Source: a phage
Length of the DNA stretch: 64,000 nt
Direction: 5' to 3' (one strand)
Sequence record: PQ536907.1
Position numbers and translations under genes: made by a program. Below the pieces are notes generated by a model. The model was not told the origin of the DNA and made no database searches. It saw only the letters and a program-made list of their open reading frames with translations. Positions 21,726-23,895 of the stretch are shown here, piece after piece. How positions within the stretch are numbered: the first letter of the stretch is position 1; each line of letters starts with the position of its first letter.

Positions 21726-22307
21726 TCATTTATATACTGATTCCGTAAGGGTTGTTACTTCATCTATTTTATACCAATGAGTTTCAACCATTTCACGCTT
21801 GCTTATATCATCAAGAAAACTTGCATCTAATTGAACCGTTGAATTAACACGATGCCTTTTAACGATGCGGGAAACAACTACTTCATCCGCATAAGGTAAT
21901 GCAGCATATAACAGAGCGGGTCCGCCAATTACACTAACATTAGAATTCTGGTCAAGCATAGTCTCAAATGGTGCATTAGGGCTTGACACTTGAATTTCGC
22001 CGCCAGAAATGTAAGTTATATATTGCTCCCAAGTAATATAGAAATGTGCTAAATCGCCGTCTTTAGTTACAGGATAATCACGCGCAAGGTCACACACTAC
22101 AATATGGCTACGACCAGGAAGTAATGTAGGCAATGACTGGAACGTTTTAGCGCCCATAATCATAATTGTACCTTCAGTACGAGCTTTAAAATTCTGGAGG
22201 TCCTTTTTAACTCGTCCCCATGGTAAACCGTCTTCTAAACCGAATGCTAATTCATTAAAGCCTTCAACTGTTTTAGTTGGAGAATAAGCGAATACCAATT
22301 TAATCAT
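21726..22307 (-). CDS. frd: dihydrofolate reductase
   Basis: 193 aa, [23 protein letters not shown]... matches recalled T4 DHFR. Confidence 0.9.
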
Positions 22308-22546
22308 TTTAATTCCTCAATATAAAATATGTCAGACGGTTCAATATAATTGCTAGAACGTTGGCCATGATAATTATAAATGCAAAAGTAAAATTTGTTT
22401 TTAAATTTATTTCGCACTAAAGAAACCGTATAGTAATCACCATTTAAGGTTTGAACGACAAATAAATTATCATAATAAGTTAGATTTTTGTAGATATCAG
22501 CAATATCTATGTCTTCCCCAACCTTAAGCAAATTTAGTGTTTTCAC
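22304..22546 (-). CDS. hypothetical protein (80 aa)
   Basis: ORF in frd-32 interval. Confidence 0.5.
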
Positions 22547-22555
22547 TATATTTCC

Positions 22556-22798
22556 TCAAACAGACTTTTTCACAATTTTCCAATCAGATTTAAACTGGTC
22601 GACGTCAGAATGGTAAATCCAAAATCCTGCGCTTTCTCCGTCTTCATAAAGAGGGCACCCATCACATTCATCTTCCCATCCCATGCCACGTAAAAGGTGT
22701 TCAGCTTTTTCAACAAGTTCAGAATCTTTACCGATGATATTAAAATACCATTTACCTCTAACTTCCGAATCTTTGATGCTCTGACGTTGTAATCTCAT
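22556..22798 (-). CDS. hypothetical protein (80 aa)
   Basis: ORF with own early-type promoter (GTTTACA 22848-22854, TACTAT 22825-22830) and SD. Confidence 0.5.
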   Translation of the reverse strand: MRLQRQSIKDSEVRGKWYFNIIGKDSELVEKAEHLLRGMGWEDECDGCPLYEDGESAGFWIYHSDVDQFKSDWKIVKKSV

Positions 22799-22856
22799 TT
22801 TATTCTCCTCAAGTTGATAAGGCTATAGTATCATTACCATAGCCCGTTGTAAACAA

Positions 22857-23159
22857 TTATTTTTGAATTTTATCGAGCCACTTACCAAGCTTAATCATTT
22901 CTTTAGTAGCCTTTTCCATACTTCTGAACTTGACCAATAGAGGATAGGTATCGACACCCATAACTAAACTGGTTACAAGACTGTGTTCACCCACAAGCCA
23001 TAACGAATACGTTTGAATATCGAGCCCGTAATTTCTGTCTTTATGGACCCGTACACCCATCACTTCAAATTTCTCACTAGCTTTTTCTACCGCATCCAGG
23101 AAATCATCTTTAGTCATATTAGGCCTTAAAAGTTTTTCGCAAAAGTTCAATGATTTCAT
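22857..23159 (-). CDS. hypothetical protein (100 aa; start uncertain)
   Basis: ORF in frd-32 interval; overlaps next ORF so true start may be an internal Met. Confidence 0.45.
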   Translation of the reverse strand: MKSLNFCEKLLRPNMTKDDFLDAVEKASEKFEVMGVRVHKDRNYGLDIQTYSLWLVGEHSLVTSLVMGVDTYPLLVKFRSMEKATKEMIKLGKWLDKIQK

Positions 23160-23499
23160 CTACATTGTTTTCGTCAACAATGCAGTGAATTTTTGTTACG
23201 CCAGAAACCTTGTCTTTGACTTCATCTTCTTCAGAAGTCGGTTCTTTATACTCACGAAAACAATGAAATTCATCTTCGCAAATTTCTAAAAGTCTATCTT
23301 TGAGGTAAAAATGCTTTCCATTTGCGCATTCAATGTGTTTTACTGCTTTATATCCATTAGCGACGGAAACTTCTTTAACTTCAAACCATCCGCCATTCTC
23401 TCGAATGGCTTTAACTATTGATGAATTAGAACGTGGGCTATAATTAATAAATGTATCAATAAGTCTTGGAACAAGTTCATACTTTTTACCGGTATACAT
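23119..23499 (-). CDS. hypothetical protein (126 aa)
   Basis: ORF in frd-32 interval; GC hairpin aggggcttgatagcccct upstream. Confidence 0.5.
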   Translation of the reverse strand: MYTGKKYELVPRLIDTFINYSPRSNSSIVKAIRENGGWFEVKEVSVANGYKAVKHIECANGKHFYLKDRLLEICEDEFHCFREYKEPTSEEDEVKDKVSGVTKIHCIVDENNVDEIIELLRKTFKA

Positions 23500-23543
23500 T
23501 ACGGTTTCCTCATTTTAATAGGGGCTTGATAGCCCCTTGATAA

Positions 23544-23771
23544 TTATTGTTCAATCAGTCCCATGTAAAATTCTGCGTCTTCAGAATCCATACCATCACA
23601 ATATTCATTAGCCATAAAGCGGGTGAGGTCTTCAAGAGGACCTTCAATAACGATTTGAATACTCCAAAACTTAGAATCTTGCACGCTTGTGATACTAAGT
23701 TCAGGATAACGATTACGAATAATTTCTTCGATATATTCAAAATCAACGATGTCAATATCAACTTTAGCCAT
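23544..23771 (-). CDS. hypothetical protein (75 aa, [13 protein letters not shown]...)
   Basis: ORF-track start is a TTG inside the promoter; ATG at 23771 with SD AAAGAGGA is preferred. Confidence 0.5.
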
Positions 23772-23809
23772 ATTATTTTCCTCTTTAATCATCAGCAGTA
23801 TTGCCGATA

Positions 23810-23895
23810 GTTGTATAGTACCATGGAAGGACAAGGATGTAAACCGTTTTGTGAAAAAATTTTTGAAATAAAAAAGGGGACCCTAGAGGTCCCCA
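23810..23895 (-). promoter_or_regulatory. PeSL-like cassette: gene 32 terminator stem-loop followed by early promoter (-35 GTTTACA, -10 TACTAT)
   Basis: Hairpin ggggacc-ctaga-ggtcccc (23876-23894) plus T-run on minus strand; GTTTACA 23838-23844; 17-nt spacer; TACTAT 23815-23820; A/T-rich block between. Confidence 0.6.

Follow-up and report, generated by a model that had tools for sequence, protein, structure and literature searches.

A probable hyperplastic early-gene block between gene 32 and frd of a T4-like phage, with three conserved genes and two facultative cassettes

The phage sequence PQ536907.1, of which a stretch of 64,000 nucleotides (hereafter the window) was analysed, carries five small open reading frames (ORFs) between gene 32 and frd. 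This frd-32 interval is most probably a hyperplastic early-gene block of Tequatrovirus, in which three conserved T4 genes (frd.3, frd.2, and frd.1) are accompanied by two facultative cassettes, here called ORF C and ORF A. By megablast, positions 21300-24900 of the window are 100% identical to Escherichia phage vB_Eco_Some (OZ034686.1) and 90-98% identical to hundreds of T4-like phages (Tequatrovirus). The interval belongs to a known variable region, and its layout and each of its genes have already been deposited or catalogued.

Results

Gene content of the interval

Every gene of this part of the window lies on the minus strand, and the order of transcription is gene 32, the five small ORFs, frd, a 115-amino-acid (aa) ORF, and td. 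The genes of the interval and its flanks are as follows.

23917-24825, minus strand: gene 32
23544-23771, minus strand: frd.3, 75 aa; the mechanically called ORF extends to a TTG at 23834
23119-23499, minus strand: frd.2, 126 aa
22857-23117, minus strand: ORF C, 86 aa; the mechanically called ORF is 22857-23159 (100 aa)
22556-22798, minus strand: frd.1, 80 aa
22304-22546, minus strand: ORF A, 80 aa, GTG start, 27% G+C (window, 35%)
21726-22307, minus strand: frd
20454-21314, minus strand: td

The five ORFs are all genuine genes, as opposed to frames open by chance. Each of them matches a PHROG family (E values of 5e-24 to 1e-49) and has intact orthologues in other phages, and the ratios of nonsynonymous to synonymous substitution rates (dN/dS), estimated pairwise against T4, T2, RB14, RB18, AndreasVesalius, and S16, range from 0 to 0.52. 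Three of the ORFs are frd.3, frd.2, and frd.1 in the order and orientation of T4, where these genes lie between gene 32 and frd (NC_000866, T4p240-242). The other two, ORF C and ORF A, are missing from T4. The original prediction, an earlier note made from the sequence alone, had placed five ORFs here, had supposed that the set may differ from that of T4, and had called the interval polymorphic. All of this is borne out, as the five ORFs are not the standard T4 complement and the window, T4, T2, RB14, and RB18 each hold a different combination. Other details of the note have to be revised, since the ORF given as 100 aa is 86 aa long, and three of the five products, none of which was thought to carry a recognisable motif, score far above the Pfam cut-offs. 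The implied novelty also falls away: the same five-gene layout, annotated as hypothetical proteins, occurs in at least eight other deposited genomes, and one cassette had already been named RB14ncORF233c.

Two cassette slots with alternative contents

ORF C and ORF A would be facultative cassettes in two slots, between frd.2 and frd.1 and between frd.1 and frd, which hold alternative contents in related phages. The contents of the two slots compare as follows.

This window: ORF C and the promoter/stem-loop between frd.2 and frd.1; ORF A between frd.1 and frd
T4: promoter/stem-loop and an unannotated 22-aa hydrophobic ORF (MFAPYIMAAVMLVCLYLLIKAC) between frd.2 and frd.1; a 71-bp spacer between frd.1 and frd
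T2: promoter/stem-loop only between frd.2 and frd.1; one 81-aa ORF of the RB18ORF235 type between frd.1 and frd
RB14: no ORF annotated (54-nt gap) between frd.2 and frd.1; ORF A between frd.1 and frd
RB18: ORF C between frd.2 and frd.1; two unrelated ORFs of 110 aa (RB18ORF236) and 81 aa (ORF235) between frd.1 and frd

ORF A has no counterpart in T4, T2, or RB18, and ORF C has none in T4, T2, or RB14. The two genes assort independently: ORF A occurs without ORF C in RB14, ORF C occurs without ORF A in RB18, and both are present in the window as well as in AndreasVesalius, PhiZZ23, PhiZZ30, QOTSP, G8, R5505, and AdolfPortmann. A close frd.1 (at least 80% aa identity) is carried by about 614 phage records. 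ORF A is the rarer cassette, with 39 phage records at 88% aa identity or more, and ORF C is found in 199 (at least 80%). The 110-aa RB18ORF236 is found in 159 phage records (at least 90% aa identity), and the T4 22-aa micro-ORF matches 201, about 197 of these at 95% or more.

In common with T4, the window has an early promoter ahead of frd.3, a hairpin separating frd.3 from frd.2, and a promoter/stem-loop ahead of frd.1. It differs in that it interleaves two extra genes and lacks both the micro-ORF and the 71-bp spacer of T4. By eye, not by formal alignment, this spacer resembles a fusion of the ~17 initial codons of RB18ORF236 with the final bases of ORF235 (4192-4262 of the T4 stretch compared with 1210-1810 of the RB18 stretch, in coordinates of the compared stretches). 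Because it keeps the start of the RB18-type 110-aa ORF and the end of the 81-aa ORF, the spacer reads as a deletion scar, which makes T4 the derived form at the frd.1-frd slot. The T4 micro-ORF lies on the minus strand at ~146,020-146,085 of NC_000866 (~4510-4580 of the compared stretch), between the frd.1 promoter and frd.1, and thus in the slot that ORF C occupies here. It has its own GGAG Shine-Dalgarno sequence, and none of the 15 listed records annotates it.

ORF C, a family of small phage proteins

Several observations place the start of ORF C at 86 aa. The PHROG profile aligns to residues 15-100 only of the 100-aa ORF, all 19 homologues begin with MTKD or MNKD, and the deposited annotation has the same start. 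The ATG follows the frd.2 stop after 1 nt (TAATATG) and is preceded by an AAGG Shine-Dalgarno sequence. The gene belongs to phrog_4423 and corresponds to RB18ORF238/RB51ORF239; its product is 100% identical to that of RB18ORF238, which lies in the same slot, with synonymous differences only (dN/dS of 0). Homologues occur in Tequatrovirus and Mosigvirus and, at 42-65% identity, in Phapecoctavirus myoviruses and Webervirus (Drexlerviridae) siphoviruses, always within runs of small unannotated ORFs. Orthologues of equal length persist down to 28-47% identity in other genera and families, and the core KDRNYGLDxQTYSLW is nearly invariant. In a profile search of 1.84 billion cluster representatives, the family comprised 12 clusters at 50% identity, all of them stand-alone proteins of 64-98 aa, and no domain fusion was found among these representatives. 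Neither 72,556 plasmid records nor 185,579 bacterial and archaeal species (one genome each) yielded a homologue, and ORF C appears confined to phages. The product may be a small alpha/beta protein, but its model led to no assignment of a fold.

ORF A, a possible old occupant of its position

ORF A belongs to phrog_4308 and corresponds to RB14ncORF233c, the RB14 gene in the same slot, to which it is 92.5% identical at the amino acid level (tblastn); its dN/dS values are 0.23-0.31. Homologues of equal length occur at 28-52% identity in other Tevenvirinae genera. In Gelderlandvirus S16 and Moonvirus NM4.3 (40-52% aa identity), the homologue immediately precedes frd, its stop codon overlapping the frd start, and in Karamvirus KaAlpha, it is one gene away from frd. 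Because the gene is kept upstream of frd in S16 and NM4.3 and near frd in KaAlpha, ORF A looks like an old occupant of its position that was replaced or lost in most Tequatroviruses. The 72,556 plasmid records contained no homologue, and ORF A, too, appears confined to phages.

The AlphaFold2 model of ORF A, built from 22 sequences, comprises a short strand, a helix, and five strands, with a predicted local distance difference test score (pLDDT) of 85.7 and a predicted template modelling score (pTM) of 0.71. Judged from this model, the product is taken to be a small beta-barrel protein, possibly Sm-like, with a weak resemblance to Hfq/Sm. The Tevenvirinae LSm-like family (GoF and MotB.1 as well as Frd.2) offers a comparison, from which ORF A differs as a single 80-aa domain with no C-terminal domain and no detectable sequence-profile relation to frd.2 (hhalign probability of 0.2%). 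The BFVD matches of the model come from its own uncharacterised family only, with no GoF, MotB.1, or Frd.2 model among the top 50. We did not assign ORF A to the LSm-like family because the resemblance to Sm is weak and neither hhalign nor BFVD provides a link.

Two probable early operons

The original prediction had credited the five ORFs each with its own signals. The interval instead holds two early promoters, and frd.2, ORF C, and ORF A each lack a separate promoter. A scan of the whole window with the T4-type early-promoter pattern GTTTAC-N18-TAYWAT returned 13 matches, all on the minus (gene) strand, compared to 0.06 expected by chance; two of the 13 fall in the interval. Regex scans found neither MotA-box middle promoters nor TATAAATA late promoters in the interval. 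The signals are as follows.

23876-23894, minus strand: gene 32 intrinsic terminator, a hairpin (GGGGACCUCUAGGGUCCCC) with a U run after it; fold of -15.2 kcal/mol
23815-23844, minus strand: early promoter before frd.3, GTTTACA-N17-TACTAT with TG; hexamers kept in T4
23520-23537, minus strand: intercistronic hairpin between frd.3 and frd.2, AGGGGCU-AUCA-AGCCCCU; fold of -12.9 kcal/mol, z of -3.0
22825-22854, minus strand: early promoter before frd.1, GTTTACA-N17-TACTAT
22820-22854, minus strand: composite promoter and stem-loop of the promoter-early stem-loop (PeSL) type, with an 11-bp hairpin at 22820-22845; -14.7 kcal/mol, z of -4.4

The gene 32 terminator, which is kept in T4 with an altered loop, precedes the frd.3 early promoter by ~30 nt, and the hairpin between frd.3 and frd.2 is identical in T4. 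Within the frd.1 promoter, the 11-bp hairpin lies in the spacer and -10 region, and the T4 and T2 counterparts of this element have another stem sequence with pairing retained. Gaps between genes are 44 nt (frd.3-frd.2), 1 nt (frd.2-ORF C), 58 nt with the promoter inside (ORF C-frd.1), and 9 nt (frd.1-ORF A), and the stop codon of ORF A overlaps the frd start as ATGA. Both ORF C and ORF A have good Shine-Dalgarno sequences and are translationally coupled to neighbouring genes. Rfam gave nothing credible on the interval, and a repeat search of it returned only short repeats at chance level.

From the two promoters, the hairpins, and the gene spacings and overlaps, the interval reads as two early operons, not five separately signalled genes. 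The first would run from 23815-23844 through frd.3, frd.2, and ORF C, and the second from 22825-22854 through frd.1, ORF A, frd, and the genes downstream. Both would be read from T4 early promoters of the host sigma-70 type.

The three T4-standard genes

The frd.3 product matches Phage_FRD3 (PF05798; E value of 8e-40, score of 135.6 bits, cut-off of 28.1, all 75 profile positions) and is 100% identical to those of T4, T2, and RB18, with synonymous changes only. It is acidic (isoelectric point of 4.05), and the frd.3 transcript is one of the abundant T4 RNAs that carry an NAD cap (bioRxiv 10.1101/2024.04.04.588121). The PHROG family matched by frd.3, phrog_1764, is 391 positions long, and frd.3 aligns to the last 75 only; therefore, the frd.3-type acidic module may form the C-terminus of a much larger protein in some phages. 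The frd.1 product matches DUF5417 (PF17438; E value of 9e-33, score of 112.8 bits, cut-off of 23.9, positions 1-90 of the 91 in the profile) and is 96% identical to those of T4, T2, and RB18 (dN/dS of 0.04-0.09); we found no literature on frd.1.

Between these two genes, frd.2 matches FRD2 (PF03197; E value of 4e-33, 114.5 bits against a cut-off of 29) and is a mosaic. It matches T4 exactly over the C-terminal third (residue ~80 onward), and its N-terminal domain is a different allele, common to RB18 and near that of T2, with 68-69% identity to T4 overall. The N-terminal domain of T4 Frd.2 is predicted to be LSm-like (PMC12152347), and frd.2 served as a quantitative PCR control in a MotB paper. 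DUF5417, FRD2, and Phage_FRD3 are families in name only. Salmonella phage S16 carries two tandem frd.2 paralogues, gp159.1 and gp159 (32% and 58% identical to frd.2 of the window; 1260-2036 of the compared stretch), in a frd-32 interval enlarged to eleven small ORFs.

Neighbouring genes and annotations

The 115-aa ORF (21359-21706, minus strand) is phrog_1928 (RB32ORF229c) and is inserted exactly at the frd/td junction, where frd and td overlap in T4. An imperfect 9-bp repeat, ATGAAAYAA, brackets it near 21314 and 21720, and the RB14 record describes it as 'flanked by 9 bp repeat'. The ORF is also present in T2, RB14, RB18, and AndreasVesalius. The label 'putative homing endonuclease' given to it in BASEL was unsupported by any domain search. 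Two T4 mobile elements that flank the region are missing from this phage: unlike in T4, td is uninterrupted, with neither the group I intron nor I-TevI, and segG is not found between genes 32 and 59 (24826-24924). The vB_Eco_Some deposit contains a 34-aa 'hypothetical protein', SOME_221, at 23792-23896 (minus strand), across the terminator of gene 32 and the early promoter of frd.3. Its equivalent is unannotated in T4, RB18, and AndreasVesalius, and SOME_221 is probably a spurious call.

Discussion

The cassettes may have been swapped by homologous recombination between co-infecting phages, with exchange putatively anchored in the promoter/stem-loop element and in the flanking genes, which are highly conserved. 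The boundaries of the cassettes coincide exactly with gene ends or with the promoter element, which fits replacement via homologous recombination in conserved flanks. PeSL-mediated shuffling has been described for hyperplastic regions of T4-type phages (PMC2839356, PMC4122927), where PeSL cassettes combine an intergenic sigma-70-type promoter (TTTACW-N17-TAYWAT) and a stable stem-loop beside variable ORFs. The 22820-22854 element matches this motif, and intergenic promoters and stable stem-loops (-14.7 and -15.2 kcal/mol) are found at two sites of the interval. The arrangement differs in that the stem-loop at 22820-22854 lies inside the promoter spacer and -10 region, and the stem-loop at 23815-23894 is a separate upstream terminator.

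Several points weigh against this account of the interval. The variable ORFs are not bracketed by two PeSLs, as ORF C has such an element on one side only, with frd.2 directly upstream, and ORF A has none; the classic PeSL-to-PeSL excision, of the mini-circle type in RB49/phi1, is not evident. Sharp boundaries at gene ends are the sole ground for the recombination route. No homology links any of the five products to a function, and the structure model of ORF C is mediocre (pLDDT of 70) with generic fold matches. Additionally, in a CRISPRi-ART screen of T4, frd.2 was scored a fitness gene, the sole 'Fit' gene of unknown function (PMC11879866), which fits poorly with a dispensable accessory gene unless the knock-down was polar.

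Searches for function returned little. ORF A, ORF C, and the 115-aa ORF between td and frd had no match in Pfam, NCBIfam, or PADLOC (PADLOC holds models of defence, not anti-defence), PDB searches with all five products, as single sequences and as profiles, gave nothing below an E value of 0.09, and homology to a characterised protein was not found. The products may be small soluble proteins made early in infection, and those of ORF A and ORF C can probably be dispensed with in the laboratory, by analogy with T4 frd.2, amber mutants of which plate normally (PMC12152347). They could act as accessory binding proteins that tune infection in particular hosts, with ORF A most likely a small Sm/SH3-like beta-barrel that would bind RNA or a partner protein.

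A more specific role, in which ORF A, ORF C, or both are counter-defence or host-takeover effectors kept where the relevant host factor is met, is possible, but we regard it as doubtful. Both genes lie under early promoters and are patchily present among near-identical phages, neither has relatives in the plasmid records (nor ORF C in the species genomes), ORF A is poorer in G+C than the window, and ORF C recurs in unrelated virulent groups (Straboviridae, Phapecoctavirus, and Webervirus of the Drexlerviridae) among small early or accessory ORFs. However, the genes of T-even hyperplastic regions are all typically patchy in distribution, irrespective of function, and homology to a characterised inhibitor was not found. 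Rather unlikely, in our judgement, is another reading, in which ORF A is a further, sequence-unrelated Sm/LSm-like early protein of T-even phages, co-translated with Frd and acting on RNA or a host factor, and ORF C is a portable inhibitor of a host function that crosses three phage families. If it were true, ORF A or ORF C would be a new small phage effector, and its facultative presence would explain host-specific fitness differences among near-identical T-even phages.

The ATGA overlap of ORF A with frd, an adjacency kept in S16 and NM4.3 at 40-52% aa identity and nearly so in KaAlpha, could also point to a tie with dihydrofolate reductase and nucleotide synthesis, ORF A being a small partner or regulator co-translated with Frd. 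We consider this improbable, as ~94% of the phages with close frd.1 and frd lack ORF A (39 of ~614 have it), the slot otherwise holds unrelated ORFs or nothing, yet Frd is 96-98% identical, and vertical descent could account for the kept position. It is harder still to believe that the extra ORFs are non-functional and represent, in an AT-rich spacer, chance frames, genes in decay, or artefacts of annotation. They are small and without a Pfam family, and ORF A has a GTG start and is very AT-rich; however, equal-length orthologues persist at 28-52% (ORF A) and 28-47% (ORF C) identity elsewhere, dN/dS is low for ORF A and only synonymous changes separate ORF C from its RB18 orthologue, both genes have good Shine-Dalgarno sequences, and the fold of ORF A is predicted with confidence.

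We thus favour the reading of the frd-32 interval as a hyperplastic block of three conserved genes and two exchangeable cassettes. It holds nothing unexpected for T4 specialists, and the resulting map of the region, with corrected gene starts, two operons, and two cassette slots with alternative contents, is of modest practical value. The comparison suggests that even T4, the reference phage, has undergone a deletion at the frd.1-frd slot. T2, T4, RB14, RB18, the BASEL phages, and vB_Eco_Some form a near-isogenic set that differs by ORF A and/or ORF C, a ready resource for addressing the function of these small early genes.

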